Below, one piece after another: positions 3,257 to 53,593 of a stretch of 63,671 nt of DNA. The stretch is from a virus (lineage: Duplodnaviria > Caudoviricetes). The stretch lies in IMG/VR virus record IMGVR_UViG_3300042894_002234, positions 1-63,671 of that record. The stretch is one strand, 5' to 3'. Position 1 is the stretch's first letter; every line of letters begins with the position of its first letter. A model generated the notes under the pieces. It saw only the letters and a program-made list of their open reading frames with translations, did not search any database and was not told the origin of the DNA. The translations under genes were made by a program, and so were the position numbers.

Positions 3257-3715
3257 ATGAACAAAATCAAAGTTACCCAAGCAAAGGTTGAAAAACAAAT
3301 TACAAACTCTAATTTCAGAATGAAGTATGAAAGAGATGAGTTTAACAGTGTACAGAATAAACTGTATAAAGAGGTTTTATTTGGATTATCAAATTTCTCA
3401 GAGAGTGAGATTAAAGCTATTCCTTACAAGGAACAAAATAGAATTAATAAAACTCATAGACATGCTCAAAGCATATTGAACATTTGGAAACAAGAACTGT
3501 GTAACAACATAGTTAATGACTTATTTAAGGCATTGTTCCCAAAATCGTCAATAACCAAAGAGTTGAATGAAGAATATGGTAATCTAATTGATCCAACTTT
3601 CAAAAATTTTGTTAACTTTAAAGATCTTGGAATATCTAAGAAACAAATAGTTAATAAATTAATTACTCATAATGTTTTACCTAAAAATTTCTTTGAATTA
3701 AATGAATCTAAATGA
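3257..3715 (+). CDS. Hypothetical phage protein
   Basis: 152-aa ORF overlapping the next gene. Confidence 0.7.
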   Translation: MNKIKVTQAKVEKQITNSNFRMKYERDEFNSVQNKLYKEVLFGLSNFSESEIKAIPYKEQNRINKTHRHAQSILNIWKQELCNNIVNDLFKALFPKSSITKELNEEYGNLIDPTFKNFVNFKDLGISKKQIVNKLITHNVLPKNFFELNESK

Positions 3716-29161: not shown

Positions 29162-29187
29162 GGGGAGTTATTAGCTCCCCTTTTTTT
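29162..29187 (+). terminator. Intrinsic terminator at the convergence of the two gene blocks
   Basis: GGGGAGT-tatta-GCTCCCC followed by T7. Confidence 0.75.
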
Positions 29188-29317
29188 ATCCTTGACCATT
29201 ATATTTTTTAGCGTAATTCTTAGCGTGTTTAGAACGGGAGTTTTTAGTTTTACTATGAACTCCCTTTCTTTTTACTTTAGGCTTATTTGTTTTACTTACT
29301 GGTGTTCCTTTTTTCAT
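29186..29317 (-). CDS. Small very basic protein (43 aa, not in ORF track)
   Basis: MKKGTPVSKTNKPKVKRKGVHSKTKNSRSKHAKNYAKKYNGQG*; starts 6 nt after the giant gene stop. Confidence 0.65.
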   Translation of the reverse strand: MKKGTPVSKTNKPKVKRKGVHSKTKNSRSKHAKNYAKKYNGQG

Positions 29318-29323
29318 AACTAA

Positions 29324-32300
29324 TTATTTATAAATGTTTTCTGCTGATACAAAATCTTGAATTGCTTTTGATGGATCTATAGTTTTACCTGTTAATGCAA
29401 ACGCTTTACCTATATGATTAAGAATCTTAGCTGATTCTGCTTTTTGCCAAGAATATGGTCCAACATCTTTAGAGTAATAAGCTGAATCATCACCTTGAAC
29501 CATCATAATAACATCACCTAGTATCTTACCATAAGTTTGTAAAGATGGGCCATTTGCTAAGTTGAAATTACTAAGCATGTCAGAATAGAATCCAACTTTA
29601 TAGTACTGAGAGTTTTCAGAAGCTACACTCATTGTCTGATATAATAAATGATTAGCTAACCAACCAAATGCTTTAAAATCTTTTGAACCTAACGGACCAC
29701 CTTGTCTCTCTCTTAATTTTTCATATTTATCATCATCATCTCCATCCCAACCAAATAACATTGGAATTAATGCAGATAAGATAGTTAATAAGGCAATTTC
29801 AGTTAAAGCTTTATATACAGCACCTTTTTCAGAAGGTCTCATATAATGCCAGTGTTTACCATAAGTAACTAACATTTTTGATAGAGCTCTTGCTGATTGT
29901 ATCCAGTAACCCATCTCTAGAGTTTGAGAAGCATTATTTCTTCTAAATCTAGGAGCAAATAGGGAACCTGAGAAACCAAATCTGTTTACCATACCTGTAA
30001 TAAAGAACTTTCTTAAGAACATAAACATTCTATAGAATAAGTATCTGTTACCTTCTGGTTGATCAAATTTAGAATATACTCCGTTTAGAATATTTTGCTT
30101 TTCCTGTATAAAAATTCTCTTTCTTTTAAATTCACTTCCTCCTAAACCCCATTTTTCATCAATACCTTCTTTTAAAGTTAGTCTATCATCAACTAATTCA
30201 AAAGCTTCATGATATGGAATTTCAGTAGTAACGCCATTAATTGTTTGTTCTACTTTAGTAAATTCCATTACTCCAAAGAAATATTCTAATGTTGCTTCAA
30301 TCTCCATAAATTTTCTAGGAGACATTAATATATTAGTAGGAGATGCAACATCTTTATAAATAGATCTGGTAATATACTCTGGCAGTTTTTCCATTGCCAT
30401 ACCTTGAGATGGATCAAAAGCATTTACTAATTGAGCATAGTAAGGAAGTTTACCTTTACTATAAATAGATCCAGATATTTGCATCATAGCTTTAGATGCA
30501 ATCATTTTTCCTTTTAGGAAACTTTTACCGTCATAACTTGTTCCAGCAGCTAATTCAATAGCCTGTTGTAACTGCTGACCAAATCTATTCTTAACACCTG
30601 ATGGTATATCAAGAGCAAAGAATCCAAAAGATGCAGCTTGCATCATTACTTTAGATAATTTCTGAAGTACTAAAGCATCAGAACCAAATCCAGTTTGCTG
30701 AACATTATAGAATGTTCTATCAATCAAACCTTTAATAGCTTTAGCTCTAATATTTTCTCCTCTTTTATTAGCAAATACAGGTATTTTATGAGTGATCCAA
30801 TGGTACCAACTTGCTTTAGTTGTATCCTTTGGTTGATTCTTTGGATCATTAAGAAGCTGCATTAAACCTTTTGCTATTGGTTCAATTTCAGACAACTTAC
30901 TTGCTCTTTCAATTGAGTGCATGTGTCTAAGTACAGATGTAATTACATCTAATGATACCTGATCATCATCCATTAAAGTCTTACCAGAGATATGAATCTT
31001 TTGCTCATCTTCATCAAAGAAATCTAGTTTAGTTAATTTGAATTTATCTTCAATACCCAGACCTTCATCAGTATCTTCAGCATTTGGTCTAAATTTATTT
31101 ACAAAATTCTTAATTGCAATTTTAGCAGCAGATCCTTGTGATGATAAAAATTTATTAGTTTCAGTAAGTTCCTTACTAGTTTTTTCATATCTAGGAACAT
31201 CCATATATAATTTATCTGATGCAGGAGCTTTTTCTTGAAACTTTAAATGAAATTCTTTTATTTTTTCAAGAATATTAAAAGCTCCTTCATTATTATCTTT
31301 TAAATCAAAATATGCTTGATTAATATAAGGACTATTTGGAACATCAAGTCTTGGTAAATATTGTTCTTTATTATCTACAGTTACACCAAGAATTTCTTCT
31401 GTAGCAAATTCAGGTTTAATATTTTGTTTATAGTATGCTAATGACGGTAATCCCCAGATATGAACATGTTTGTCTGTTTCTTTCCAGTTCATACTTTTAA
31501 CGTACTTAGGATCTCTAGGTTCTATTTGATTCCATAGGAATAATCTTTCAAATCTTTTAACTCTCATTTGAAGTTCATCATCCCATCTTTCTACTTCATT
31601 ATGATTAGCCATGAACCATTCTTCAAATTCTGGATCTTTCTTAATCATACTTTCAACAAATCCTCTTTCTCTAGCTAAATCATCAATGTCAAATCTGTCA
31701 AAGTGTTTTACTGTTATAGGTAATCCTTTTGCAGTTTGTCTATTATTATGTAAATCAATTTGATGATTATAAACTTCTAGATAGTAATCAGTAGCTTTTT
31801 TGCTTTGTAAGCTAGAAAGTTCATCATATAACATCTTTAAATCTTGTTTAACACCTTTAGGTATAGTAGAAATAGAAGATCTAATTTCAAATTGTTCTAA
31901 ATCTTCAAGTTGTTTCTGAGTTAAATCTCTACCAGATTCACTAAGATCTTTTAGTTCTCTATATTCTCTAGCTTCACCTCGTGATAAACCATTACCATTT
32001 TTAATCATGTCTTGGAGCTCTTGGATTTTCTCTTGAGCTTCTTTAATCTTAGCAATTTTCTCTTTAGATACAAGAATTCCATTAGGATGATTTTCTTCAT
32101 CTCTATAAGCATATAACTGATCAATAATTAAATTCCAATACTCTTTAGTTTTTTCAACAATTTTAGAATCTTCTGCAAAACTTCCAGAAAGACTATTATA
32201 AATTGCATTTATCTTTTCTATGATTAATGCTTTGTCTACATAGAACTGTTTATCTATAACTTTTCTAGTATTCATATCATCCCATTCCTGTAACTTCTTT

Positions 32301-35300: not shown

Positions 35301-37444
35301 AGAACATCAAAATGTTTTAATGCTAAATTTAAATTTTCATTTACTTGTTGTAAAGTAACTAAACCTACTACAATATCTCTTTCTTGATAATAATTATTAA
35401 TTTCATCAGCATCAGCATACTCAGGTCCCAATTCAAAATAATCAGGTGGATCATTTGGATACCCATCCATATCATAACCTTCACCGTATGGATTATATGG
35501 ACCATCTGGTTCATCATAATAAATATTATTATTTTGACGATCTTCAATTACATCATCGCTTATACCATTATCTCTAGCATTTATAGCTCTTTGAATGGTT
35601 TGATTATTTAAATCTAGATTATGTTTTTCAAAAAAAGCTATTGTATCATCTAGATGATCTATAGAAGCAGTACCATTATTAGCTCTTGATGTAACTTCTT
35701 TTACTTTTATTTTACCATTAGTTTGTTGAATTTTTCTTCTTTCTAATTCTTCTGTATCGTAGAAAAGAGCATCAATTTCTTCATCCTCTTGCTGAGTATC
35801 AGGATATGCTTCTATACCAGCTACTGTTACACCATTAACAATTAATAAATAGTTGTCATAATTTTCTACATAATGTTCTGTCATAGAACTTGCTGTACAC
35901 CAAGTATGAGGAGATAATTTTCTAAGGAGTTCTACATTTTTTTTAAATGCACTTTTTTCTTTATCCCAGTCTTCTGGTTTATAAGTTTTAAGATCATTTT
36001 CAAGTTTATTTAACTTTTCTTCTGTCTCTTTTATTTGTTTTTCTATATAGTCTTGATTATAAGATTCAATTTGACTTTCTAGTTGATATATTCTATTTTT
36101 AGCATCAGCATCATATGCACTATATGGATAGTCTTCTACTTCTTTTTCCCATAACTCTTCTGCTTGTTTTTTGGTTATAGGTACAATTTTAGTAGATGGT
36201 CTTCCGTTTTCTGTATTATATCCATGAATATAGTAACCTTCATAATTTTGTCCTAATTCATTAACATGTGGTTTATTATCTTTATTCCATCTTGAATAAG
36301 TACTTTCAGTTCTTACATAATCGTATTCTTGAAATCCATATTTATTAGCATCTGTTCTACTAAGATTTATTTCCTGTTTAAAAAATATTTTTTCTTTACT
36401 TTTTAATTCTTCTAGTTCATTAACTAAATTATTATAATAATCAGGTTTTTGTTTTTGTTTTAAAATTTCTAAGTAGTCATTATTTTGTTCAATTACTAAT
36501 TCTGTACTATCCTTAAAACGTTCATAACTATCATATCCTAAAGTATTTCCAGAAGATGTTCTTGGAACATGTACCCAATATCCATTACCACTAGCAGAAG
36601 GTTCATGACCTATAGCATCAGAAACAGACGCTAAAACTTCTTGATCATATAATTTACCTAATCTATTAGCTTCATTAGGTTTATTCATTAGAATACCATA
36701 TGTATTTGTTAAAGCTACTTTGCTTAATTGTAATACATACTTAGCTCTTCTATTTGGATTATTTAGATATTTAATAGCATGTGTTAACATTATATCTTGA
36801 AAGACTAATGGATAATCTGCTAAGGCTGCTTTCCATTCTCTAAAGCTTTCTAATGCTAATGGATTAAACTTAAATTCTAAATATTTATTTTCATCTAGTT
36901 TTCTATTATAAACTTTTTCAATTAACTCTTCTATTTGTTTTGTACTTGTAATGTATTTAGGATGTCCAATTCTACTTTTATTGATACCAAGCCAATTGAT
37001 TAATAATGGATCTGTAATACCATTTGCATAAAGAACATCTTTCATTGCAAATGAAATACCATCACTTCCTAATATTTCATCAGGAACAGTACTTACAATT
37101 TCAATACTATTGAATATTTCTATTGGTAATTTTTTAATCTCATTTTCAAACTCAGGATTGACTACACTATTTTTTCCAAAGTATTTTTCTGGATGCATGA
37201 TATAGTCATATACCTGATAGTTAATCTCATCGTTTACATCATATATATTTGAAACAGTATCAATTTCCTTTAGATAATCAATTGTTTGTTGAAACTCATC
37301 TGTAAAAGTTCCAGCGTATTCTAATAGTGCTTCTTCTTCACTCATAGTATTTCTAATACTTTGATATAAAATAGAAGGTTCATTATTACTAGCTAGTACT
37401 CTTTTTACAGTACCGTTATCATTTCTAATTATTCTACAAGCCAT
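29324..37444 (-). CDS. Giant virion/ejection polyvalent protein (2706 aa) with two zincin-like domains
   Basis: HEVAH (about 34946-34960) and HEFSH (about 34316-34330); hydrophobic C-terminal segments; follows the vRNAP gene, as in crAss-like phages. Confidence 0.75.
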   Translation of the reverse strand: MACRIIRNDNGTVKRVLASNNEPSILYQSIRNTMSEEEALLEYAGTFTDEFQQTIDYLKEIDTVSNIYDVNDEINYQVYDYIMHPEKYFGKNSVVNPEFENEIKKLPIEIFNSIEIVSTVPDEILGSDGISFAMKDVLYANGITDPLLINWLGINKSRIGHPKYITSTKQIEELIEKVYNRKLDENKYLEFKFNPLALESFREWKAALADYPLVFQDIMLTHAIKYLNNPNRRAKYVLQLSKVALTNTYGILMNKPNEANRLGKLYDQEVLASVSDAIGHEPSASGNGYWVHVPRTSSGNTLGYDSYERFKDSTELVIEQNNDYLEILKQKQKPDYYNNLVNELEELKSKEKIFFKQEINLSRTDANKYGFQEYDYVRTESTYSRWNKDNKPHVNELGQNYEGYYIHGYNTENGRPSTKIVPITKKQAEELWEKEVEDYPYSAYDADAKNRIYQLESQIESYNQDYIEKQIKETEEKLNKLENDLKTYKPEDWDKEKSAFKKNVELLRKLSPHTWCTASSMTEHYVENYDNYLLIVNGVTVAGIEAYPDTQQEDEEIDALFYDTEELERRKIQQTNGKIKVKEVTSRANNGTASIDHLDDTIAFFEKHNLDLNNQTIQRAINARDNGISDDVIEDRQNNNIYYDEPDGPYNPYGEGYDMDGYPNDPPDYFELGPEYADADEINNYYQERDIVVGLVTLQQVNENLNLALKHFDVLLPEFKNNEDLARQAVENHSHNIKHINIDAPYYNELARIAVEKSPYVFEYLSDEGKNIEGLREIWNTYNEGLIDELPFSKTNNNLIQGYYDANNDKVVVVESNTPIEEAAKVAIHEVAHRGMLRMAKELGGVNELASALFAAEKQLMQKLPELLQRTGHKNLDSLLLDYGFNKNTRDGKIKLLMELTARWAETLVDKSQPSWWKQLIKNITNWIKQFTGKTLNEQEVNDLVGGFVRYGTKNSNSSAQFNETQHDIDENIAPQLLDQISERLSRNLGGVPYNLITEVDAISLLSETQEKYNGQPAFFYNGQVYFIKDKLNLENVFHEFSHPFIKAIKKTNPTLFNKLFDTLSQTQEGQEIIRTVKEYYKYDENSEDFKEEVLVRALTTRARNNELNAQESTEFTKFIDKLMYAIKQLMRKVFGKIKIDKLNANTNLDQLAKMLNNDSFEISSEIITESEKADFNTMQDSVKDLMAKASDTLLQSNIDKLFKLIGSGKQIMKEAEKRHAGLKESISKEKLEAPFQEESSTLSKYQTYTKTNEAPLDLVNYRKSQIEALVLSLQSYNDSIEKIILEINRSRSDVDSVLTISKNMYFLKNLSQTLETFDEIKQQMVDEGISVSSPVFELLNKASNNAKIGMTAVYAQNEAAIPGILAPHLKGINEVLNKEFDKSIAEMVARGATTEQIAAKERERDSYIRDENTLARVISGKTPEPSGLGLSILVESAVSSPDELISSFALYVKEALIDVELNATKNFNDFLAETRKLLKDAGLDDFKLVSKLGKIITYTEELGYKDPKTGEFKTHKVHRFLNPFKGYEVVLSKFKYDIDAALESGDTELASTLEVERQEWKRTYMHDKWKPEVYKIYDVFKKTYVNDAGVTVEIGKMARERYDKIMEDINNGVKLIDNELERIEIDNRIKIDTLWVEYKKLFSEYDNDGNLKTGDEMGITQTLLEYRTERKKYFEWESDEDPESMPIYRFKKARSLFEAQLLTKYPDRFDPEYVKKLQEWDDMNTRKVIDKQFYVDKALIIEKINAIYNSLSGSFAEDSKIVEKTKEYWNLIIDQLYAYRDEENHPNGILVSKEKIAKIKEAQEKIQELQDMIKNGNGLSRGEAREYRELKDLSESGRDLTQKQLEDLEQFEIRSSISTIPKGVKQDLKMLYDELSSLQSKKATDYYLEVYNHQIDLHNNRQTAKGLPITVKHFDRFDIDDLARERGFVESMIKKDPEFEEWFMANHNEVERWDDELQMRVKRFERLFLWNQIEPRDPKYVKSMNWKETDKHVHIWGLPSLAYYKQNIKPEFATEEILGVTVDNKEQYLPRLDVPNSPYINQAYFDLKDNNEGAFNILEKIKEFHLKFQEKAPASDKLYMDVPRYEKTSKELTETNKFLSSQGSAAKIAIKNFVNKFRPNAEDTDEGLGIEDKFKLTKLDFFDEDEQKIHISGKTLMDDDQVSLDVITSVLRHMHSIERASKLSEIEPIAKGLMQLLNDPKNQPKDTTKASWYHWITHKIPVFANKRGENIRAKAIKGLIDRTFYNVQQTGFGSDALVLQKLSKVMMQAASFGFFALDIPSGVKNRFGQQLQQAIELAAGTSYDGKSFLKGKMIASKAMMQISGSIYSKGKLPYYAQLVNAFDPSQGMAMEKLPEYITRSIYKDVASPTNILMSPRKFMEIEATLEYFFGVMEFTKVEQTINGVTTEIPYHEAFELVDDRLTLKEGIDEKWGLGGSEFKRKRIFIQEKQNILNGVYSKFDQPEGNRYLFYRMFMFLRKFFITGMVNRFGFSGSLFAPRFRRNNASQTLEMGYWIQSARALSKMLVTYGKHWHYMRPSEKGAVYKALTEIALLTILSALIPMLFGWDGDDDDKYEKLRERQGGPLGSKDFKAFGWLANHLLYQTMSVASENSQYYKVGFYSDMLSNFNLANGPSLQTYGKILGDVIMMVQGDDSAYYSKDVGPYSWQKAESAKILNHIGKAFALTGKTIDPSKAIQDFVSAENIYK

Positions 37445-37446
37445 GA

Positions 37447-43400: not shown

Positions 43401-46400
43401 AGAATAGAATTGTAGATTCTACAAATGATACAAAAGTATTAGCACTATAAGCTCTAACTAATCTATCTGCTTTTTCAGCATCAGACATTTTTAGTTTACC
43501 TGCAGCAGGTTTAACTAATTTGCGAATACTATCTTGATCAAGATATTTCATCTCATCATAAACTTCTTTATTTTGAGAAGTTAGAAATGTCAAGTAAGAT
43601 GATATCTGTTGTTGTAATGATTTATATAAATCACTGTCTTTTGAAAGATTTGCATAGTCTTCAACAGACATGTCATATAACATGTTTTTTTGTTCTGTTG
43701 TTAAGATATCATGAAATATCAAAAACTCTTTTCCTTGATTTTTAAATTCAGGAAAGAAATCTAAATCTGATATAGTATTATTTCTAATGTCTTGTACTCT
43801 TTCATGCTCTGCAGTTAAATAACCAAGCATGATATCAACAAATTTATCATCTGCTGATGGTACATCTTGTAAATATTCTAATGGATTTATAAAATGTGGA
43901 TTATTACCAGTATGGAATGCTAATGCCATTTTCTTATCAGCAGCTCTAGGTACTTCTATATAACCATTATTAATATATGAATAGAAGTCTATATAGAATT
44001 TGGTAGTTGGATCTGTATCAAGAATAGAAACAGAAGTAACATTAACCCCATCTTTATCTAATTGTATACCAGAAAAGTTACTAAGATTTAAAGTATCTAT
44101 TCTGGAACCTAAACTATCTCCAAATAGTTTTTTAAACATTTGAGAATGTCTAACCATTGGATTTCTAGTAGGATTATAATGAGCAAACTCGGGCTTATTA
44201 TAAAAATCAACAAAATTGTTTACTTCGTTAATACCATTCTTTGTAATAGTAATAGTGTTGTTAAGTATGTTCTCATATTGTCTATTACCTTCAGCATTTA
44301 GTAAACTAAAAGTACTAACTATATCTTCTACTTTAAGATATGATTCAATAACTGTATTGATTACATTAGATTGATTTTCTCCTTTTGTATTTGTTAAATA
44401 GTTAATATGATCAGGAATAAGATTAGTTGATACCCCTTTGTTAGTATATGCTAATAACATTTTATATACAAACTTAGCACCTACTAGCACAGTTGTGTTA
44501 GTTAGTAATTCTTTATACTCTTCTGACTTACCAACAGGAATACCAATAGCTTTATAAAATTCAACTGCCGTATTAAATTTAGCTTTATCACTTGCTTTGT
44601 TATATTTATCTCCAAAAGCATCATCAAATCTATCAATCAACTTTTGTTTATCTATTACTCTAGCACCACTATGGTCCCTTGTAGTTATTGGATTTAGCCT
44701 ATCAAAAGCAAATTCTTGAGCAAATTTTCTTTTAGTATTAGATAGATCTAATTTACCTTGTGTGTTATATAGAGTATAGCCAAATTCTAAATTTTCATAA
44801 TCTGATTTCTGTTCTAGTCTAGTAATGATTAATGGTAATGATGTAGTATTAAAACTATTAGCAAATAAGATCCAAGCATTTAGAACCTCTTTATTCTGTA
44901 CAGCTTCTCCAATATTAATATTACCTAGTTTAGATAGTAGTTCAGCAATTTCATAAGAACCATTGCTACTCATTTCTTCAAGTGTACGTTTAATAGACAT
45001 TACACCAGAATTGTTATTTAAGTTTCTTATAAGAGTTCCTAAAGTTTTATTGAATTTAGTTAGCTTAGGAAAACCTAAATCATTCATCTCTACCTCACCA
45101 TTTGAATCATATTGTTTTAATGTTCTAATTAAAAACAATACTTTTTCATTAGCCATATCTTCAAATGAAACTTCACCATTCTGTTGTAGCTCTTTTTGAA
45201 TTTGTGAATCTAAACTAAAATTATTTTCATCATTATCATCTAATGTTTTAGTTTTAAAATCTAATAACTTAGAGCGTCTAAGATGGTATGAAATAGTTGT
45301 ACTATCGTTTAATCTTTTGTTATCAATCGTATCATTAATATCTCCAAAATCATCAATAGCAGTTTGCAATACACTTAAAGCATATTCGTTTTTATTTACA
45401 TCTGTACTTAAATCAACTATTTTTTCTTCAATGATTTGTTTGATATTAGTATATAGATTTTTGATTGATTGACTAGAACTTAAAAATTCACCAATTAATA
45501 TTCTTCCTCTTTCTTTAGAAAAATTCTCTAGTATATTAGATAGAATGGCATCCATAGAATCAGATACCTCATTTGATTGAGCTATTGTTAACTGATTACC
45601 TTTTTCTGCAGAACCAATAGGTGATGCTAATGAACCAAACATAATGTTTGCTGCATTAGGTTTCTTATCTAATATTTTACCTCCAGATAAATTATCATAT
45701 AGTCTTTTTACTTCTTTTAATGAATTAAAATCTATTTGAGTCTGTTCATATGAAACATTATCAAACAACCAGTTTAAGAATTTAAGAATCTTAGCAAAAA
45801 CTTTATTAGTTACTGGTCTTTGTCCAAAGACTTTAGTTCCGTTAGATAACTTATATTGTCTAAAGTCCTCAGCTAAAAATTCTTCTATTTGAACAGGTTT
45901 AGCATCTGAGAATTTAATTCTTCCACCTCCTGGTAAAAGAAATGTTCCAGACATTTTTCCAATCTCTCTATATAAATTATTCTTTTCATCTTTTGTTAAA
46001 AATAATTGAGAAAAACCATGCCAAGCTTCATGATACAAATCTGTATAGTTAGAACCATAATATAAAATTATTCCTGTTCTACTCCAAACAGCTTTTGCAT
46101 TTGAATTCATTGTTTTAAACATTGGTTCAAAAGGAACTACACTTCTTAAGTATTCATTTTCCTCAGAGTTATACCAATCTAATGCAGCTTGCTTTTGTTT
46201 TTCAGAAGCTTCAGAACTCATGCCCTTTACCTTCATCAAACTTTCAGGATCTATATTCCTAATAATTTTATCAATAGCACTTGGTTTTTTAGATGGTAAC
46301 TCTGCACTCTTTTCTAATCCTAATTCTTTTTTGGTATCAGGATCAATCTCAAAATTTAGATAAGAATTAAATAGTTGGACTTTACCATCATCATTTAATG

Positions 46401-47913
46401 GCACTGGTGTTCTAAGAACCTCTTTCCAAAAATTATAATGTTCTTCTCTATTTACAATAGCTAGTTTACCATTCTTAATTCCATAGTAAGATGGTGCTTC
46501 TTTTTGATAAGTTAACCAAAAACCAGTTTTGCTTGTACCACCTGTTTTTAAAAATTCTATTAGTCTTTCTGTATTCTCTTCTTTACTCCCATTATTTACA
46601 AAACTTTCAAGAAGTTTTTCTAAATCATTCTTATTACTATTTGATAATGCTAAGTGTTGAGCTAAGAATTCAAAAGCAACATTAATGTTATCAGATGTAT
46701 AAATACTATCAACTGATGCTTTACTAAAATCCTTTAGTTCTGTATCATTTAACTTTCTTGTAAATAGATTTATAGTACTACCAAATAATGTAATATATCT
46801 ATTAGCTTTATTTCCTAAAGTATCATAATTGATTTTAAAAAAAGGCATATCTGCAGTAATCTGTCCTAATGTTGTTGGAGCAGTTTCATAGCTTAATGTT
46901 TTTCCTTTTTCAAAAACTGGAAAGTATCCTGGAGTTCCTCCTGTAATATCAAGAACAATTTTTTTGTTTTCAAATACACCCTTTTGTATTGCTTTTAAAT
47001 TTGCTACACCATCAAGAACTTTACGCATAGCTTCATCTTCAGAAATATCTTGATTTTTAGCTATTTCTTCAACTGACTGAATACGTCCTCTTGCAATATT
47101 ATCATCTAATAGATCAAAGCGTGTATCTCTCATTTGGAAATACACCATCCTACCTTCAGGATTTACTGAGTAGTCATTATTAAATTTTAATATTTTACCA
47201 TCATTATCAGTTATAACTAAAGCAACTGTTTCATCTTCATCAAGTCTTCTTTTTATTTCTTCTTCAGAAAAATCTCCTTCTTTTAAAAAATCATAAAGTT
47301 CCTCAAAAGGAATCTCTGACATTTTGATTGCTGTTAATCTAAAACCAGTATGGTTCTTAATTGTAATTGTAGAACCATCATAACCAGTAAGATTATTTAA
47401 TAGAGCTCTATTGAAACCATGATACCAAGTTTTCTTAGGATCTACTTTTTGAGTAGAACTATCTACTCTTTCATCAGGCCCAGTTGTTGAATTTGGATCA
47501 TTACTTTTTGCTTGAAATATTTTCTGAGTTTTATCTTTTGGTGATATAATCTCATCAACACTTACTTCAATAGTTTCTTCAACTTCTTTTTCACTTGTTA
47601 ATCCTAATTCCTTTGCTACATTTTCTAATGTACCAAGTTCAAATTTCTTAGGTAGTATTGATAATGCCATCAATACATCATCTTTAACAAGATTATTTTT
47701 TTTAGATCTCAGTAGATACTCTTGAATGTATCTGGGCATTAATTGAATATAAGATAATGCTGTTGCTGGTGTTTTGCCAGCTTTAATAAACTTATCAAAT
47801 AAGTCATTCATATGTGTAATATGAGAATAACTATTTAAATCCTCTTGAGCTGCAATATATCTAGCAATTGATTGATATAATTTACCCTGTTCTTCTTTAT
47901 TAATACAAGCCAT
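37447..47913 (-). CDS. Virion-associated single-subunit (double-psi beta-barrel) RNA polymerase of crAss-like phages, 3488 aa
   Basis: Catalytic GGDFDIDK (DFDID at 41734-41748) preceded by RIP, DGQG and STQMRK; N-terminal zincin HEAWH (46018-46032). Confidence 0.9.
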   Translation of the reverse strand: MACINKEEQGKLYQSIARYIAAQEDLNSYSHITHMNDLFDKFIKAGKTPATALSYIQLMPRYIQEYLLRSKKNNLVKDDVLMALSILPKKFELGTLENVAKELGLTSEKEVEETIEVSVDEIISPKDKTQKIFQAKSNDPNSTTGPDERVDSSTQKVDPKKTWYHGFNRALLNNLTGYDGSTITIKNHTGFRLTAIKMSEIPFEELYDFLKEGDFSEEEIKRRLDEDETVALVITDNDGKILKFNNDYSVNPEGRMVYFQMRDTRFDLLDDNIARGRIQSVEEIAKNQDISEDEAMRKVLDGVANLKAIQKGVFENKKIVLDITGGTPGYFPVFEKGKTLSYETAPTTLGQITADMPFFKINYDTLGNKANRYITLFGSTINLFTRKLNDTELKDFSKASVDSIYTSDNINVAFEFLAQHLALSNSNKNDLEKLLESFVNNGSKEENTERLIEFLKTGGTSKTGFWLTYQKEAPSYYGIKNGKLAIVNREEHYNFWKEVLRTPVPLNDDGKVQLFNSYLNFEIDPDTKKELGLEKSAELPSKKPSAIDKIIRNIDPESLMKVKGMSSEASEKQKQAALDWYNSEENEYLRSVVPFEPMFKTMNSNAKAVWSRTGIILYYGSNYTDLYHEAWHGFSQLFLTKDEKNNLYREIGKMSGTFLLPGGGRIKFSDAKPVQIEEFLAEDFRQYKLSNGTKVFGQRPVTNKVFAKILKFLNWLFDNVSYEQTQIDFNSLKEVKRLYDNLSGGKILDKKPNAANIMFGSLASPIGSAEKGNQLTIAQSNEVSDSMDAILSNILENFSKERGRILIGEFLSSSQSIKNLYTNIKQIIEEKIVDLSTDVNKNEYALSVLQTAIDDFGDINDTIDNKRLNDSTTISYHLRRSKLLDFKTKTLDDNDENNFSLDSQIQKELQQNGEVSFEDMANEKVLFLIRTLKQYDSNGEVEMNDLGFPKLTKFNKTLGTLIRNLNNNSGVMSIKRTLEEMSSNGSYEIAELLSKLGNINIGEAVQNKEVLNAWILFANSFNTTSLPLIITRLEQKSDYENLEFGYTLYNTQGKLDLSNTKRKFAQEFAFDRLNPITTRDHSGARVIDKQKLIDRFDDAFGDKYNKASDKAKFNTAVEFYKAIGIPVGKSEEYKELLTNTTVLVGAKFVYKMLLAYTNKGVSTNLIPDHINYLTNTKGENQSNVINTVIESYLKVEDIVSTFSLLNAEGNRQYENILNNTITITKNGINEVNNFVDFYNKPEFAHYNPTRNPMVRHSQMFKKLFGDSLGSRIDTLNLSNFSGIQLDKDGVNVTSVSILDTDPTTKFYIDFYSYINNGYIEVPRAADKKMALAFHTGNNPHFINPLEYLQDVPSADDKFVDIMLGYLTAEHERVQDIRNNTISDLDFFPEFKNQGKEFLIFHDILTTEQKNMLYDMSVEDYANLSKDSDLYKSLQQQISSYLTFLTSQNKEVYDEMKYLDQDSIRKLVKPAAGKLKMSDAEKADRLVRAYSANTFVSFVESTILFYGDISAYNLLKEEFHKRNSSAGSTGRTFMSDKEIIGGYNELFGNKYASKRGYNSYGIDKDGIVRTAVLNDIQVQNDKLIAEYADTFKEKYTKDFTAFGLKGKALTDRVDEEVAKSIKKYFADEIKEGDGQGWLTFDAYRMLAKLSNEWSQSQEDLYLKIVEGKEIGIDEVMKYFPPRKYQYYGPIKTDKYHLNALHKFSLMPLIPKVIKGKNLELLHERMMNDNVHYATFKSGSKTATRTYADGKSDNLYSDLATRTAMPIDAPFIVNEINIKFLRNQVSINDEFKGEVVFSTQMRKLIINELFEKGVPLTPNVERLVKSYLKNIEKYIDFNKQELRDEIELKKDGKFNAESLAKIIKKEMSRRDFPEHLQDAVTKIENGKFAYDLSYALNAENIEEILLSIVNKRIVRRKVNGEPLVQAAVSGFEMQRMKGVSKEEAEKYGYDELETYRKDPDTGNTLPMQVKIALQGQFKKLLYLKHNGKVIGDRESLNLALKDPKWMKEYGAMVRLTGVRIPVQGFNSMEMMEVAEFLDESAGNIVVPPTQIVSKSGGDFDIDKLSIFFPNIFLSKDKSVVKLDTVGNAGLENNITQDIINILSAPEIAAALIRPNDTDLVQPLSKEMLKYFAKSYNPKKNFNQDPESMKFIDDLETDPAKKVKTRSVSPTKIFETRYNIYKQFSNSVGKKALGIGAVDNAYNALFNQVGLYLNDTFEHSRTDKKTGKLVYQTRKNRLLLNHNKMNNGNISLSNIFNTEGTKISDLINQLINGWVDVAKDPWIAYVMGTPEASPSLLYLVQAGVPFKQAVYFLANPLVREYFDTLKKMKSPLAALSQELEQNDKGEVVVKNNLPENEFKLKTRMLGLDQYTTGHKLYDEIIDLTKGIENITEKELKDRLEASLDPAWQRNETDMAVFAHFLEILDVANGLFKIKSALNFDTKTSTTMYDAYARTVKKDSIIEEDEDEANVLKIFPKDKLKALYNDTILHNFDVSEMQMEMFGDMFKVRNHPNLNKYLLNFYKNSLVFGSNIYDRVKEIFGGNDKLISEYKNDFTTAITLTALRDFNPKTGAYKGYEIVDVNSKEYDRVVNKKATKSLPTDKLHFAKKNYTKETPEDYPKYGFIFTENAEKLGTDYNVSTTQAVIRTNKQGERNPNALAIVTKKMQKAGANFTNSEADFTKFKELNTELINNIVNSKYERIIVPTGGFAMEKAKLPTRFAEWLQNELQTKLGIATELVDRGAGVSGLTNSKKYEEPTTQESTNPLVEAGIKPSDMSGNAAKDIQMASESTQFIGFGTIMKEGNVSSTDKYAKAWGNKANTGEYTANDTIMVSGSGNFGRGGVDKTEEAAAIKKTLSEKYKPLLNKAIEAGASFRIGNQYSKGNLSDETVAKYLEQKGYTEEKLNGYSRWVSPKSTKVEQVPTKGTNIPGYIPTGVFIQDDKMYVDMEILAEQFKNGDYSNNNTGAYSILVKTAEDTSYTLTKMSPKTFNNNFSEYVHFVMEREYQRSILKSTDITNFDKILSNIIKTKKEFLFTASSQKLRTDIGENKKINDTVGTFEVNKYGLVDFVDASTGEVLYENLKKLKGNEYQEYILNKDVLLALQLKVVEDHITNKALKNILNSYSYMEDPNNGYAIQLMNMLRDPEYSYLKKDYTILDALTTSYSKESGITNLVFKEGKPDADTTTNYNEELNRLANIDVIKNDDIHVNKAISEFFEKFQYYVILSSGFSSNTKYSLNSIISQEKILSFTNNEKIKQATNRILNNPDYSVVERNINTFTEKFLKNRLGLVRAGGTEKFSKKPGFSSDSSNRNKQYVSQGVSEPVTRYENVIPSDNTLKKVNDFLYLIDIDLIREQATKSKDPKYFTNTVLKLAETHDDKLFIFTSGDKIPVTVKASNVSTFNTPEQIKNAEFSGPVIIPVSGLKGMNDAGTAQLSEALFEKFNVRNPGFDKGSSKLTIREMMNSDSFLTSTDVINSIRIKSHAILDELNNSCNF

Positions 47914-47923
47914 TTCTTAGTTT

Positions 47924-50900
47924 TTAATTATTGCACAAATTTGGATCTTCAGATCCATTAATCATATCATCATCATTTGTATCATTCATAGTTTTATCAA
48001 GTTGAGCAAAATCCTCCTCAGTAAAACTAATATTCATTTTTTCAATATTATTCTTAGCATCTGCATTATCTACTTCATCTATTTTTATAGCTTCAGTTTG
48101 ACCTTGCGCAGGAATAACACTTATTAAATTATGAAGATTACTACGTTTGAGAAATGTACTTTCCTTTGGATCATATTCTAAATCATATGTATCAGGATCT
48201 CTCATTTTTATTATTTTAGTTTTGTGTTGTTTACCAGTCTCTTCATTTAATATTATGACTGTATCACCTGGTTGCAAGTTACTAAATAATAAATTTCTTG
48301 CATTTAAATATGTCATTTTTTTATCGAATGCTTCCATCACTTCTTTAGACTGTTTACTAGTAATGTATTTACCTAATTCAATCAATTGCTCACGACTAAC
48401 AACTTCATCTATAAAAGGAAGAAGATCATAGTTACCAGTTAATAATTGAACTAATGAATTCTGATCAACTGATAAAACTAAATTATTTTGATCTTGTTTA
48501 GTCTTAAGACTCTTTAGATAAGATTTAAGAGAAGTATCTGTTATACCAGGATTCTTTTTACGAATAGCTTCTTTTGATATATCTTCATTATTAGCTTTAA
48601 TACTATAATCCGCACTAGAAATAAAAGCTACTGAACCTGTCAATACAGTCTTACCTTGTGCAGCTAAAGCTTGTGCTTTTTTAAATGCACTAGCATAACG
48701 TGTATCTTTAAGAGCTCCAAAGTTTGGATTTTTTACCCCATACATAGAGAATACAACTTCACCAATATTTTCTGGTGTTGCATTTTCAAAGCCTGGATCA
48801 TTTTTAAACTCTTCATATAGTAATACATCCATATCAACAAATTGATCTGGATACTGTTCTACTAAAGTAGTTTTACCTAAACCTGGAGAAAAGTAAATTA
48901 TCTTTCCTTTAAACATATTGTCTAATGGAAACTCTTCTTTTACTTTTTGTTTTTCTTTTTCATTAACAAACTCTTCATAGCCTGAAAAATCTTCATAGCT
49001 TTCGGGCTCTCCTTGAAACTCAAATGGGTCTTTCTCATATTCTTCAAAACTAGTTATAACGTTACTAAGTCCTTCTGTTACAGATTCTAAATCTAAACCA
49101 AATTGTAATGCAAAATCATCAATTAGATTTAATAATTTTTTATTATATGCATTATCTGCTGCAACTTCTTTATATGTTTTTTCACTAATACCATTTGGAT
49201 ATCTCTGTATTATGTCCACTATCAAATACATGATATCTTGTGAATCATAATTTGGAAATCCATTTTCAGCTACTTCTTGCTGTATTAAACTAGAAAAAAT
49301 ATCTAATGTATCTATGGAACCTAAATCATTATTAATCCATTTTTTAAGATTTACATCAGTTAGATTTCCAGATAATTCATTAGTATCTCTAAACTTTCTA
49401 TTAACTAATTTAGAAATAAGAAGAGTATCCAAATCTACATAAGTAGTATTGGAATTTTCCATACCCTCTTCATAATATTGGTATAGATCAGTTATATATT
49501 CTTTGACAGCTTCTCTACTATTATCACTTATAATTTCAGTATACCATAATCTTAGTAGATTAGGTTTCTTAATTAACTCCTTACCGTATTTAAGAATCTG
49601 GTTTAATGATTTTACTTCTTTACCTTTCTTATTAAAGAATCTCCACTTGTTATCTCTTTTATCTAAATAAGCTTTAATGCTTTTAGAAATATTAAACTCT
49701 AACGTAAAATTATTTGATTCTTTTTGAAAATCACTTAATTCCTTTTTAGTAGGCTCTTCTTCTTCACCAATTACTTTAGCTTCAAAAGCTTCAGTTTTTG
49801 CTACAAATTCATCTCTTTTAACATTAATTGCAGTAAGTATATCAGGGGTCATTTGATCCACCGCATCAATTGAATCCATTATTTTATCTAGTTCTCTTGA
49901 TGATGTAGATTTATTAATTAATGATTTCCATTTATCAGTATTGTCTTCAACTTCAGTTTCTACTACAGGTTGTTCTTCAGTTGGTTGAATACCCATTGCT
50001 TCAGCATATCCTGGAGTATCTTCTAGATTCTCAGGAATAGTGACTTCTTCAGTAGGTGTTATAGGTGTTGGTCTTGTATCTATTTCAATAATAAGATTAC
50101 CATTTTCAATCCTAGTTACAATATTCTTTTCGGGATATTGTTGTCTAAGTTTTTCTATATCTGAATCTATTTTTTGTCTTTGTTCTGGAGTAGCTCTAGA
50201 TATACTAGAGATAACAGATTTACCTGATGTAAGTAAACCAGCTTCTATTATTTTTAATCCTTGATCTGTAGCTAAACCAGTTACAAACTGACCTAATAAG
50301 TCAGCAGGAGTTGCAGGTACAGGAGCAGGTTGTTTTTCTGCTGCAATTATACGTGCTGCTCTAGGTGTTTCTAAATACTCTTCAAAAGATTGAGTATTTT
50401 TTTCTGGATAAACTTCATAGTCAGCTACTAGTTTAGCTTTAGTCTCTGGTGTATATACATCAAGAGCCTTTTCTTTCTCAGCTACTCTAGCAGCTTCAAC
50501 TGCTTCTTCTACTTTTTTAGCAGCATCTTCTCTAGCTTTTATAGCAGCTGCTTCTTTCTCTTTAGATACTCCAGTTATATCTTCGTATTCTTTAAAGATC
50601 TCTTTTATTTTTGCAATGTCTTCAACATCTGTTGCATTTACTTGAGATAAATCTTTAACTCTATAAAAAGTTTTTACATCTTTTTTACCTCCAGATATAT
50701 TATAGGCAACCATTTCTTTTGGTTCACCTACAAAACCTGCATCATATAACTTTTGAAATACTCCATTTAAACCAATCTTTCTTAGATAATCATCAATTGA
50801 TTTTTTAATTAGATCTTTTCTATTTGTATGCATTTTCTTTAATGCATCATACCTTCTTAAAGATTCATTTCTTAAAAAATTAGGATCTGCTATTACAGCA

Positions 50901-53593
50901 ACACTTCTACTAAGAAATTCAGCATCAATATTTAATCTATAGTAATCTTTAAAAAGATTAAATGCTTCTTCTAATTTATCAGATTTTAATACATCATTTT
51001 TAATATTTGCATAATTGCTCAAGTAGTTTACAAAAGCTTCTTTAAGATCATTATCATATTTTGGATTAACAGTCTCATCTGCTTTTAATTGAGTATAGTA
51101 TTTTTTATATTCTGCTATAGTTTTTTGTACTTCAGATAAATCTTGAATTTGCTGTTCTTTTTGTTTAGCTAATCTTTCATTTTCTTTAGTACCATCTTTT
51201 AATGATTCTATTTCTTGATCTAATAGTTTTACTTCATTGAGCATATTATCTGCACCAAACAAATGTAAAAATTCAATAGCATTACCATTAGCTACTAAAT
51301 CAATACTTGTAAAAGCATCTGTAATTGAAGACATCCTTGATAGTACTCTATCAAATTGATATGGAGCAAATATTGCTGAACTTTTAGCTTCTTCATAGGC
51401 ATTATGCATTAATACCATTTCATTATACTCATCTGTTCCTTTTTTGTAATCATTAAATTTAAAAGGATTTTCTGCAAACTTTTCAGATCTCTGCTTAATG
51501 TTTTTTGCTCTTTCAATAGATACTTCTAATCTTTGTCTTCCAGCTTGTGCATCAGTTGTACCCAAGGCATCCATTATGCCTTGATCATCCATTGAATTTA
51601 TCTTTTCAAGATGCTCAATAAATAAATCATACTTACCAGTATATAAAGCTGTTGATACATTTTTAAACAAAGCCTCATCAGTAAAATCAATTAAGAATTT
51701 ACTATCACCATTTTCAGCAGCTTGTTTAGTTTTAGCAGCAAGAATTTCTTGTGCAGACATATTAGCTAAATCTGGTGTCAACATATTACCAGCATCTGCA
51801 TAAAAATCATTTAGATTTTTTACAAGAGTATTTCTCATTTGATCATACTCTGCAGCTTTAGCTTCTCTTTGTGCTTTTATGTTTTCTCTTTTTTCTTTAA
51901 TTTCAGTAAATGCTTCTGGATCAGTTTTAGAATAGAAAAAGTCTTTTACTTTATTAGAGCTTTCATTAATACTACTACTAACTTTTTTAATTGCTCTACT
52001 ACCTCCACTCATCAAACCTCCCATTAAGAATCCACTCAAGAAAGTTTCAGCACCTTGACCACTAAACTGTTCTCCAAGACCCTTACCATAACTATCAAGC
52101 ATGCTTAATTCATAATGATTTTTTACTATGTTATGTTCATTATGAAATTGTTTAGTATAATAATCTTCAACAGCAATAGATGAAGCTTCTTGAAAAGACT
52201 CTTGTAAACCTTCAGCTAAATTTGCTGAAAAATAGTTAAGAGTATTTTGAGTCATTAATCTAGGATTAAGACTTCTTATTGCTGATTCTTTCCAACCATC
52301 ACCAAGTATTTTAAATACTTCCTTTCTTGAGATATCTCCAGATATTGTTTTACCAAGTAATTTAAAAGTGTCTTGTGTAGAACCAAATAATTTATTAATA
52401 GGTTTAGTTAAATTTCCAAATACAATATTATTTGTATACTGTATTACTGGAAAATTTATCATCTCATTTACATAACCAGCATGTAATGACTTTTCTTTAA
52501 TGTCATCTATTTGTTCTTTAGTAGGTGTCTTTCCATCAGCATAAGCTTCTCCTAAAAGTTTTTCAAACATTGTATTTTGAACAAAACCACCTTCTAGTTT
52601 AGCTTCAGATAAAGCTCTATTAATATCTCTTACATCTTTAAAGAATGCTCCAAAACTTTTAGAAGCTCTAGCTACTTGACCTAAACCATTTAAACTATTC
52701 CAATTTTTAACTAGTCCAGCTGTTGATTGTAATGGATTTAAAAACTCAGCAGCTCCTCTACCAAATTGTGTAAAGTATTTTTTTGCTTCAACAGCATTAT
52801 CTAAATGTCTAATTGATTTTAAAAGAGCACCTGTTGTTTTACCAAGACCCATAATCTTACTACCAGCCATACCAGCTCTAACAGCAGCAAGATAACCAGC
52901 TGCTCCTAATGAAGCACCACCTGTTTCTAAAGCACCACCAATTCCTCCTAATGCAAGTATAGCTTCTTCTGCAGCTAGTTCAGCAAGAATACCTACAGTA
53001 AATCCAGCATTGATACCAAAATTAATAATACTTGAACCAAGTGTCCCTCTAGTAGACATTGTCTCAGCCATTATTCTTTCTGTTTCTCTAGCAGCTTCTA
53101 CATTTGGAGAAAAATCTCCAGTTAACATTTTAGGTAAATCAGCTGCTGTAGTTACAAAAGCACTACCAGCTATTTGTAAAAATCCTTTAGTACCTCTTGT
53201 TACATCAGACCAAATAGAAGAATTGTCATTATAAAATTTCTCATTATCTCTGAATGGATCAAATCCTAACTCATCAAATTTGGAACTACTTTTATATCTA
53301 TCCCAGTTTAATCCTTTATAAGTTGGATTAAAAGCAAATATTTTAGCATCTGCTAATGGGTCAGTATAATTTGATTGTAGATTTGATATATTATTACTAG
53401 CTGTAGCAGCCCTATTATTATGCTGATTAATTAAAGCTCTAATTTCATTTTCATCACCAGTACCCTCATCAATCTTTGGTGCTGGTAATATATCATCATT
53501 AGCTGGAATACCTTTAACTAAAAAAGAATTAGAATAAAAATCATTCAGTTCAGGAGTAATAAGTGTGTTTGAATCCTTAAAGATCTCTTCCAT
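47924..53593 (-). CDS. Giant virion/ejection protein (1889 aa) with Gly/Ala-rich hydrophobic segments and a C-terminal P-loop module
   Basis: GINAGFTVGILAELAAEEAILALGGIGGAL.. and FLSGFLMGGLMSGG membrane-like helices, EGLQE, long coiled coils, FSPGLGKTT. Confidence 0.7.
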   Translation of the reverse strand: MEEIFKDSNTLITPELNDFYSNSFLVKGIPANDDILPAPKIDEGTGDENEIRALINQHNNRAATASNNISNLQSNYTDPLADAKIFAFNPTYKGLNWDRYKSSSKFDELGFDPFRDNEKFYNDNSSIWSDVTRGTKGFLQIAGSAFVTTAADLPKMLTGDFSPNVEAARETERIMAETMSTRGTLGSSIINFGINAGFTVGILAELAAEEAILALGGIGGALETGGASLGAAGYLAAVRAGMAGSKIMGLGKTTGALLKSIRHLDNAVEAKKYFTQFGRGAAEFLNPLQSTAGLVKNWNSLNGLGQVARASKSFGAFFKDVRDINRALSEAKLEGGFVQNTMFEKLLGEAYADGKTPTKEQIDDIKEKSLHAGYVNEMINFPVIQYTNNIVFGNLTKPINKLFGSTQDTFKLLGKTISGDISRKEVFKILGDGWKESAIRSLNPRLMTQNTLNYFSANLAEGLQESFQEASSIAVEDYYTKQFHNEHNIVKNHYELSMLDSYGKGLGEQFSGQGAETFLSGFLMGGLMSGGSRAIKKVSSSINESSNKVKDFFYSKTDPEAFTEIKEKRENIKAQREAKAAEYDQMRNTLVKNLNDFYADAGNMLTPDLANMSAQEILAAKTKQAAENGDSKFLIDFTDEALFKNVSTALYTGKYDLFIEHLEKINSMDDQGIMDALGTTDAQAGRQRLEVSIERAKNIKQRSEKFAENPFKFNDYKKGTDEYNEMVLMHNAYEEAKSSAIFAPYQFDRVLSRMSSITDAFTSIDLVANGNAIEFLHLFGADNMLNEVKLLDQEIESLKDGTKENERLAKQKEQQIQDLSEVQKTIAEYKKYYTQLKADETVNPKYDNDLKEAFVNYLSNYANIKNDVLKSDKLEEAFNLFKDYYRLNIDAEFLSRSVAVIADPNFLRNESLRRYDALKKMHTNRKDLIKKSIDDYLRKIGLNGVFQKLYDAGFVGEPKEMVAYNISGGKKDVKTFYRVKDLSQVNATDVEDIAKIKEIFKEYEDITGVSKEKEAAAIKAREDAAKKVEEAVEAARVAEKEKALDVYTPETKAKLVADYEVYPEKNTQSFEEYLETPRAARIIAAEKQPAPVPATPADLLGQFVTGLATDQGLKIIEAGLLTSGKSVISSISRATPEQRQKIDSDIEKLRQQYPEKNIVTRIENGNLIIEIDTRPTPITPTEEVTIPENLEDTPGYAEAMGIQPTEEQPVVETEVEDNTDKWKSLINKSTSSRELDKIMDSIDAVDQMTPDILTAINVKRDEFVAKTEAFEAKVIGEEEEPTKKELSDFQKESNNFTLEFNISKSIKAYLDKRDNKWRFFNKKGKEVKSLNQILKYGKELIKKPNLLRLWYTEIISDNSREAVKEYITDLYQYYEEGMENSNTTYVDLDTLLISKLVNRKFRDTNELSGNLTDVNLKKWINNDLGSIDTLDIFSSLIQQEVAENGFPNYDSQDIMYLIVDIIQRYPNGISEKTYKEVAADNAYNKKLLNLIDDFALQFGLDLESVTEGLSNVITSFEEYEKDPFEFQGEPESYEDFSGYEEFVNEKEKQKVKEEFPLDNMFKGKIIYFSPGLGKTTLVEQYPDQFVDMDVLLYEEFKNDPGFENATPENIGEVVFSMYGVKNPNFGALKDTRYASAFKKAQALAAQGKTVLTGSVAFISSADYSIKANNEDISKEAIRKKNPGITDTSLKSYLKSLKTKQDQNNLVLSVDQNSLVQLLTGNYDLLPFIDEVVSREQLIELGKYITSKQSKEVMEAFDKKMTYLNARNLLFSNLQPGDTVIILNEETGKQHKTKIIKMRDPDTYDLEYDPKESTFLKRSNLHNLISVIPAQGQTEAIKIDEVDNADAKNNIEKMNISFTEEDFAQLDKTMNDTNDDDMINGSEDPNLCNN

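Follow-up and report, generated by a model that had tools for sequence, protein, structure and literature searches.

The 63,671-nt stretch of DNA analysed here, the IMG/VR record IMGVR_UViG_3300042894_002234 of a virus assigned to Duplodnaviria, Caudoviricetes, is referred to throughout as the window. Its minus strand carries a block of large open reading frames (ORFs) that includes three genes for giant proteins, which we call A, B and C in gene order; the genes for A and C flank that for B, a putative virion RNA polymerase (Table 1). We describe a pattern in the cysteines of these proteins, which lie almost exclusively at the termini that face one another across the two gene junctions, and we consider whether A, B and C are joined through them into a chain.

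Table 1 Features of the window, in window coordinates
Feature	Position	Strand	Remarks
Protein A, 1889 aa (first member of the proposed chain)	47924..53593	-	sole Cys is residue 1887; ends ..PNLCNN (stop)
Protein B, 3488 aa (middle member; putative virion RNA polymerase)	37447..47913	-	Cys only at 3 and 3486; ends ..NSCNF (stop)
Protein C, 2706 aa (last member)	29324..37444	-	Cys3 and internal Cys516
Cys1887 codon of A	47933..47935	-	TGC, 3 residues from C-terminus
Cys3 codon of B	47905..47907	-	TGT
Cys3486 codon of B	37456..37458	-	TGT, 3 residues from C-terminus
Cys3 codon of C	37436..37438	-	TGT; TGC in relative L001
Cys516 codon of C	35897..35899	-	motif WCT; sole non-terminal Cys of the trio
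DFDID catalytic motif of B, residues 2056-2060	41734..41748	-	translation SKSGGDFDIDKLSIF
HEAWH motif of B (HExxH, zincin-like), residues 628-632	46018..46032	-	
Other large virion ORF	53596-56376	-	Cys 128/133
Other large virion ORF	56437-58308	-	Cys 315/328
Other large virion ORF	58314-59315	-	Cys 155/165
Other large virion ORF	59300-63670	-	Cys 213/219
43-aa extremely basic ORF (MKKGTPVSKTNKPKVKRKG..)	29186-29317	-	starts 6 nt past the stop of C

Counted by script, every cysteine included, A, B and C together hold five cysteines in 8083 residues (0.06%). Four of these five stand three residues from a facing terminus, at both internal junctions of the order A-B-C, while the outer ends of the series, the start of A (MEEIF..) and the end of C (..NIYK), have none. 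The DNA at the A-B junction reads ..TTG TGC AAT AAT TAA aaactaagaa ATG GCT TGT.., and that at the B-C junction ..TCT TGT AAT TTT TAA tc ATG GCT TGT... For comparison, the 23 plus-strand ORFs of at least 150 aa in the window contain 88 cysteines in 6922 residues (1.27%), and four other large minus-strand ORFs contain eight in 3338 residues. Under random placement, the probability that at least four of five cysteines fall within three residues of the four facing ends is ~5 x (12/8083)^4, or ~2e-11. A preliminary description of this stretch, made from a scan by eye, had drawn attention to the pattern; its ORFs, coordinates and cysteine positions for all three proteins agree exactly with our recount, its concern that internal cysteines might have been overlooked proved groundless on computational counting, and the outer ends are, as it stated, free of cysteine in the window.

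The identity of the proteins was approached by homology. The core of B that can be aligned with homologues spans residues ~600-2500, and a tblastn search with residues 1301-2300 matched 107 phage records at 21-27% identity. Named matches of B included phi14:2 g066, annotated as 'Catalytic RNA polymerase subunit' (E 2e-15), and the putative RNA polymerase of ΦcrAss001 (E 9e-12), and the core also matched crAss002 (E 2e-10) and many uncultured Crassvirales polymerases. In an alignment of 36 B homologues (alignment A1), D2056, D2058 and D2060 of the DFDID catalytic motif are invariant, as are H628, E629, W631 and H632 of the HEAWH motif, downstream of which there are conserved Glu residues. HExxH words, HEVAHRG and HEFSHP, also occur in the alignment of C. 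Members of the A family match ΦcrAss001 gp47 (blastp E 2.6e-19), and members of the C family match ΦcrAss001 gp49 (E 4.9e-30) and phi14:2 g065 (E 9e-20). Given this homology to gp47, gp49, g065 and g066, together with the DFDID motif, we conclude from sequence comparison that A/B/C is a distant version of the virion-packaged cargo trio of crassviruses, that is, gp67/gp66/gp65 of phi14:2 and gp47/gp50/gp49 of ΦcrAss001. Packaging of the polymerase and associated cargo proteins in the virion is described for both of those phages (PMC10172136; bioRxiv 10.1101/2020.03.07.982082), and homology and gene context suggest that A, B and C would likewise be packaged and ejected. Profile searches contributed little: PHROGs gave no family for A, B or C, Pfam gave sub-threshold matches only, and a single-sequence phmmer search of B against Protein Data Bank chains at E up to 0.01 matched none, the N4 polymerase included. 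In a hydrophobicity scan, made for clues to which end of the chain leads, C showed a single strong segment (2542-2568) whereas A and B showed none.

We compared the cysteines of homologous proteins, counting a cysteine as terminal if it lay within the first 10 or the last 10 residues. For the B family, 120 listed of 319 matches were examined, with identities of 28-96% and lengths of 2438-5468 aa. Among the matches listed, all 120 have a C-terminal cysteine, 113 have an N-terminal one, and 100 have no cysteine beyond the termini; of their 249 cysteines in 425,126 residues, 16 are internal. In the A family, 47 of 50 homologues carry their sole cysteine in the last 10 residues, and neither an N-terminal (0/50) nor an internal cysteine was found. 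The exception in this family, P0197 (1263 aa), has two cysteines near its C-terminus, and the three homologues without any cysteine are short and apparently truncated; one of these three, P0179, is a fragment identical to the A of the window. A cysteine at position 3-8 is present in 52 of 58 C homologues, eight of the 58 having a C-terminal cysteine in addition and four also matching B. Among the six without an N-terminal cysteine, two begin with L and another is a fragment of the window's C. In alignment A1, C3486 is invariant and C3 is kept in at least 90% of sequences, and in an alignment of 20 C homologues (alignment A2), C3 is among only eight invariant columns. By contrast, BLAST could align the N-terminal 500 and the C-terminal 200 residues of B in only ~1/10 to 1/5 of homologues. 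As judged from these comparisons, the cysteines persist while the terminal sequence around them drifts. The preliminary description had singled out conservation of the terminal cysteines in orthologues as a test of its proposal, and they are conserved down to ~25-30% identity; the exact three-residue spacing and the C-N-x and M-A-C motifs on which it also relied are local to the clade of the window and do not hold generally.

The gene junctions themselves were examined in 79 loci, with 10-kb flanks, recovered by a profile search of IMG/VR; ORFs were called blind, each from its first ATG under table 11, and BLAST served to identify B. The N-terminus of B is complete in 70 loci, in 68 of which it is paired with an upstream protein that ends in a cysteine (no more than 10 residues from its end); in the other two, the contig edge leaves no upstream ORF. 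Every testable upstream junction of B (68/68) therefore has a cysteine on both sides, that of B at position 3-5. The C-terminus of B is complete in 74 loci, and all 74 have a cysteine pair with the downstream protein. The chains of these loci amount to 559,363 residues with 310 cysteines, 16 of them internal. Outer ends are bare: no last member has a C-terminal cysteine (0/69), and the two first members with an N-terminal one (2/64) are the contig-edge cases. As a control, we took junctions at which A closely follows the virion gene before it, and none of these has a cysteine pair (0/51). Across 133 distinct junctions, the N-terminal cysteine is at position 3 (65 junctions), 4 (39), 5 (21) or 6 (8), and the C-terminal cysteine at position -1 (39), -2 (37), -3 (25) or -4 to -10 (32). 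TGT and TGC are both in use, intergenic gaps range from -7 to +36 nt, and the flanking residues vary.

This variation in gaps, codons and flanking residues, together with the fact that gp47 of ΦcrAss001, which is encoded on the opposite strand and apart from gp50, still ends in ..RCNS, indicates that the pattern is no artefact of the DNA at the junctions; a coupling signal, promoter or repeat was ruled out as its cause on the same grounds. Read-through of one long gene was also ruled out, as the ORFs are in different frames and junction spacings vary.

Lineages in which the genes have been split or fused are informative about how the cysteines are placed. A fourth member extends the chain in four loci, and every time (4/4) that protein has a cysteine at both its ends. 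In L015, a protein of 602 aa is homologous from its residue 1 to the N-terminal part of B elsewhere, representing a gene fission; the fourth member of L031 (242 aa) is homologous to the last 120 residues of B in other phages, that of L057 (574 aa) to the N-terminal module of C proteins, and that of L070 (754 aa) has no homologue. Fused proteins lack the cysteines of the lost junction. Flavobacterium phage FpV4 gp32 (4287 aa) has a single cysteine, at -2, and the next protein, gp33, starts MAC. In the Suoliviridae cr1_1, cr118_1, cr4_1, cr6_1 and cr130_1, a large A+B protein has no N-terminal cysteine and a C-terminal one at -4/-5, and the protein that follows has Cys3-5; the A+B fusion of cr108_1 likewise lacks an N-terminal cysteine and keeps the C-terminal cysteine facing C. 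Neither FpV4 gp32 nor the cr1_1 protein has a cysteine near the fusion point. Among these fusions, pairwise BLAST links the A part to gp47 or to crAss002 gp32 for cr108_1, cr1_1 and cr118_1 only, and a profile built from 46 A N-termini (bias filter off), used to look for the A family in the fused A+B proteins, found only ΦcrAss001 gp47. The other fusion occurs in the Intestiviridae ctcc615, cr8_1 and cr11_1, where, as annotated, A ends in ..C-x and a fused B+C starts with MSC or MANNC (M-x-x-x-C in cr8_1) and has no C-terminal cysteine.

Cultured phages with three separate genes follow the same rule. In phi14:2 the pattern is perfect, with four cysteines in 5398 residues: g067 has one, with which it ends (..NTIC); g066 (MACK.. 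to ..QECK) has Cys3 and Cys2179 of 2180; and g065 (MSCK..) has Cys3 only. In ΦcrAss001, the terminal cysteine of gp47 is Cys2339, gp50 has Cys5, Cys2404 of 2412 (-9) and one internal cysteine, and gp49 has Cys5 only; the masses of gp47, gp50 and gp49 are given as 262.5, 276.9 and 154.5 kDa (PMC10172136), ~694 kDa together. Across 16 GenBank genomes with 18 junctions, 14 junctions fit as annotated, two fit after a shift of the start, one is borderline and one is an exception. The facing cysteines are thus gained and lost as pairs when genes split or fuse, which is the co-variation that the preliminary description had proposed to look for.

Two further observations concern the structure of these genes. 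In L037 (715-7922), the A gene is present as ORFs of 1613 aa (no cysteine) and 789 aa (cysteine last) with a 4-nt overlap and no cysteine pair; this is probably a frameshift or sequencing error and not a true fission, the relative L078 having one ORF of 2472 aa. In cr108_1 (L087), a group I intron (Rfam RF00028, 80 bits, E 8e-21) lies at 18180-18498, inside the polymerase catalytic motif; the upstream coding sequence (CDS) ends ..AKAGSD and the downstream one starts LYDIDK, and the record annotates two CDS.

We modelled one junction as a complex, using the last 120 residues of B (3369-3488) with residues 1-120 of C and our own alignments. The model scored 0.67, against 0.27 for the best of three controls, and the controls were passed. 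Of solved complexes, 58 of 80 reach the mark that it passed, as against 2 of 110 mismatched pairs; both counts are only rough here because our own alignments were used. Runs share at least 41% of contacts, and the partner pLDDT (the predictor's per-residue confidence) is at least 65. The predicted interface comprises B 3450-3486 with C 1-5 and 40-89, so that both cysteines are inside it. Modelling of terminal pairs had been suggested in the preliminary description, and for the B-C junction the outcome supports docking of the termini, not the bond itself.

The number of terminal cysteines is two per junction, that is, 2, 4 and 6 for chains of two, three and four members. Since this holds at any number of genes, the data fit pairwise links, each from the C-terminus of one protein to the N-terminus of the next. 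We conclude that A, B and C are probably joined head to tail, through disulfides between their terminal cysteines, into one linear pseudo-polyprotein. The head-to-tail A-B-C chain put forward in the preliminary description is thereby supported, by the conservation of the cysteines, their paired gain and loss, the count of two per junction and the B-C model. We propose the following mechanism. Selection would strip cysteines from the giant proteins except for one, a few residues at most from each terminus that faces the next protein. Inside the virus particle, each protein would dock by its C-terminal tail on the N-terminal head of the next, and the facing thiols would form an inter-protein disulfide present in the virion, giving A-S-S-B-S-S-C, ~8080 residues in this phage. 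The chain would pass through the narrow tail as a partly unfolded thread, in fixed order and stoichiometry, so that the links would set the order of ejection; in this it would resemble the N4 polymerase, likened to 'beads-on-a-string' (PMC13434306). The lack of other cysteines would avoid cross-links that would jam the channel, an extension of the cysteine suppression already known from Schitoviridae ejection proteins (PMC11445570). The reducing cytoplasm of the host would then open the links, and the parts would separate. Threading would also be a rationale for linkage at the ends: links at the extreme ends give the chain the topology of a single unbranched polypeptide. In other lineages the same proteins exist in peptide-bonded form, which shows that A, B and C can function when arranged in a line. 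The close spacing of the genes would help the chain members to be made in equal amounts.

An alternative that we consider unlikely is that the proteins dock head to tail without a disulfide, the thiols sharing a metal ion or merely sitting in the interface of a non-covalent chain. The B-C model is compatible with this, as it passes its controls with no bond imposed, and acidic residues often precede the C-terminal cysteine (for example, ..EEDPFKC and ..EDPNNC). Furthermore, phages assemble in a reducing cytoplasm and the gut crassviruses live in an anoxic habitat, so that oxidation of the thiols is not guaranteed. On the other hand, the residues around both cysteines vary freely, leaving no further conserved metal ligands visible, and a metal site of two thiolates would be unusual. 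A lone cysteine strictly kept in otherwise unalignable termini speaks for thiol chemistry and not for packing. Elsewhere in the ΦcrAss001 particle, disulfides do connect one virion protein with another, and cryo-electron microscopy maps place them in the tail and portal vertex (PMC10172136), although these rigidify a static assembly and are neither at chain termini nor in ejected cargo.

Still less probable, in our view, is a role for the terminal cysteines other than joining, as a packaging or recognition tag for the portal or a scaffold, an acylation or other modification site for membrane contact, or a redox sensor. The short conserved N-terminal words, M-x-C-[AS]-L.. in B and M-x-x-C-P-N.. 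in C, could be such signals. However, a tag gives no reason why an N-terminal cysteine should be present only on proteins that follow a C-terminal cysteine, why the first member should have none, or why a pair should be lost on fusion and gained on fission. As for modification, neither a signal peptide nor a lipobox is present, and the C-terminal cysteine lies at a distance of 1-10 from the end, unlike in a CaaX-type box, as these motifs are generally defined.

Other pairings of the same cysteines (closure of B through Cys3-Cys3486 with an A-C pair, homodimers of like termini, or a four-cysteine metal or Fe-S knot) are equally compatible with the three-gene arrangement taken alone, with its 1 + 2 + 1 terminal cysteines, but are very improbable in the light of the other arrangements, since two-member systems (A+B/C in FpV4; A/B+C in crAss002, ctcc615, cr8_1 and cr11_1) leave a single hetero-pair in which B cannot close on itself, its fused protein having only one terminal cysteine, a knot would not scale to the six terminal cysteines of four-member chains, and homodimers predict neither facing cysteines on both sides of new breaks (4/4) nor bare outer ends (0/69 last members; 0/50 in the A family).

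Several points weigh against a disulfide-linked chain. Support for the disulfide is comparative or modelled throughout, the model covers the B-C junction only, and Cys516 of C has no partner in the scheme. An N-terminal cysteine is absent from 7 of 120 listed B and 6 of 58 C homologues, which we presume to be truncated or mis-started calls. Among the GenBank genomes, the clear exception is cr273_1 gp35, whose last cysteine is 50 residues from the C-terminus, and the borderline case is cr10_1, with its C-terminal cysteine at -11. The fused B+C proteins of crAss002 and cr110_1 fit only with the start moved to an in-frame Met (33 and 15, respectively), as in the sister cr11_1. The A portion of FpV4 gp32 was not linked to the A family by pairwise BLAST and is assigned from length only. 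Finally, Intestiviridae and Suoliviridae of the gut commonly have internal cysteines; the set ctcc615, cr273_1, cr130_1 and cr8_1 includes, for example, 17 cysteines over 4253 aa and 26 over 5801 aa. Loss of internal cysteines is strict in the clade of the window, phi14:2 and FpV4, whereas in the relaxed gut lineages it is mostly the terminal cysteines that stay; the argument that no other cysteine means no jam in the channel is therefore not universal, and the strictness of the loss may possibly track habitat.

Some of the gene calls just mentioned are probably mis-annotated. In the region ~13211-13320 of L084 (crAss002 gp33) and ~13062-13110 of L097 (cr110_1 gp_23009), the in-frame Met that is the probable true start gives MSC... 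In cr10_1 (L095), an unannotated gene that starts MKIICPNLKN follows the gene for a 4460-aa protein, from ~22240.

If A, B and C are joined as we propose, a wider generalisation is possible, which we offer tentatively. Across Crassvirales and relatives, the cargo would be a reducible, disulfide-stitched assembly of ~0.6-0.9 MDa, whose links fix copy ratio and exit order, and reduction by host thiols would free, and perhaps activate, a self-inhibited polymerase, acting as a redox switch for the first step of infection. The gp66 polymerase is described as self-inhibited (bioRxiv 10.1101/2020.03.07.982082), and that reduction relieves this state is speculation on our part. In a bolder variant, the overhangs past the cysteines may act as leaving groups, and the proteins may be truly ligated by thioester chemistry.

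Enzymes for thiol oxidation were sought in the vicinity. No small CxxC protein of the thiol oxidase or thioredoxin kind is present among the ORFs of at least 60 aa in the window, which is part of a genome; the sole CxxC protein found is a 145-aa ORF with eight cysteines and three CxxC motifs. In three gut crassviruses, cr108_1 (L087), ctcc615 (L091) and cr8_1 (L096), genes of the thioredoxin family are found within a few kb of the cargo genes and on the strand opposite to them.

The internal cysteine of C belongs to a separate feature. Cys516 is a cysteine in all 22 sequences compared and lies in a module (C residues ~490-560) with the conserved word KLSPxTWCTAS..HYVENYDNYLLIVxGVTVAGI. Only some members of the C family have this module, and the nearest relatives of C, with Cys3 alone, lack it, so that the C protein of the window looks mosaic. 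Searches for a function gave nothing credible in Pfam at E up to 10, and in Atlas only weak leads to PcfJ and PBECR4 (0.81-0.84), below the level deemed reliable. The other large virion ORFs of Table 1 each have exactly two cysteines, close together; in the 'MATY..' protein, the pair at 128/133-134 is found again in several relatives from IMG/VR, others having none. The 43-aa basic ORF beyond C might encode a small protein that is packaged or binds nucleic acid.

Crassviruses have been called the most abundant human gut viruses (PMC10172136), and the exit route and order of their cargo and the activation of its polymerase are stated to be open questions (PMC10172136; bioRxiv 10.1101/2020.03.07.982082). 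The terminal-cysteine code is order-wide and unexpected, and is directly testable in the cultured phages phi14:2 and ΦcrAss001. If our reading of it as a disulfide-linked chain is correct, it would represent a new viral way to build a polyprotein after translation, explain how these genes can fuse and split freely in evolution without loss of function, and sharpen what is known from N4-like phages of how ejection relates to the depletion of cysteine. It would also provide a simple annotation rule for true starts and chain members in metagenomic crAss-like genomes.

An analogy to the proposed links is found in the A-B toxins, in which a reducible inter-chain disulfide holds the translocated chain through a narrow channel and is opened in the reducing cytosol. 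There is no homology, however; the toxin chains are cut from one precursor rather than being separate gene products, and no virus particle is involved.

Among phages, the nearest comparison outside the crassviruses is with the Schitoviridae, whose virion RNA polymerase is likewise giant (~3400-3500 aa) and leaves, probably in unfolded form, by way of a narrow tail, and whose ejection proteins are strongly depleted of cysteine. The ejection proteins gp50-52 of N4 and gp71-73 of DEV are wholly without cysteine (PMC11445570), which has been explained by their passage through the periplasm (PMC11445570; PMC13434306), whereas the trio of the window keeps conserved terminal cysteines. The polymerases also differ in kind, that of N4, which has been likened to 'beads-on-a-string' (PMC13434306), being single-subunit with a T7-like core, and B having a two-barrel-type DFDID motif and matching crAss polymerases.

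Neither these cysteines nor a linked cargo chain is mentioned in the full-text literature searched, a scope outside which lie subscription-only papers and supplements, including the reduced and non-reduced mass spectrometry of PMC10172136, which may bear on the claim. The cysteines of the trio go unmentioned in the portions covered of PMC10172136 and of the Drobysheva preprint, and the text of a paper on polyvalent proteins (PMC5512222) contains neither 'cysteine' nor 'disulfide'. Cysteine depletion of ejected proteins and disulfides in virions are each already known; what appears to be new is a conserved code of terminal cysteines by which separate cargo proteins would be concatenated.

The closest counterparts are the trios of phi14:2 and ΦcrAss001, which are homologous to that of the window and alike in the DFDxD polymerase motif and the terminal-cysteine pattern, phi14:2 having the same gene block. 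The window's polymerase is larger (3488 aa versus 2180-2412 aa), with a core identity of ~22-25%, and zincin HExxH words occur in B as well as C, whereas in phi14:2 the zincin-like domain is reported in gp65 and not in the polymerase. The ΦcrAss001 cargo must partly unfold to pass constrictions of <50 Å, its order of exit being stated as open (PMC10172136). In other crAss-like phages, the same three proteins are fused in the order A-B-C (bioRxiv 10.1101/2020.03.07.982082), and fusions are without the junction cysteine pair, in contrast to the separate genes of the window. For the fused forms, that preprint assumes cleavage of a polyprotein; our proposal for A, B and C is the reverse, namely that proteins made separately would be joined.

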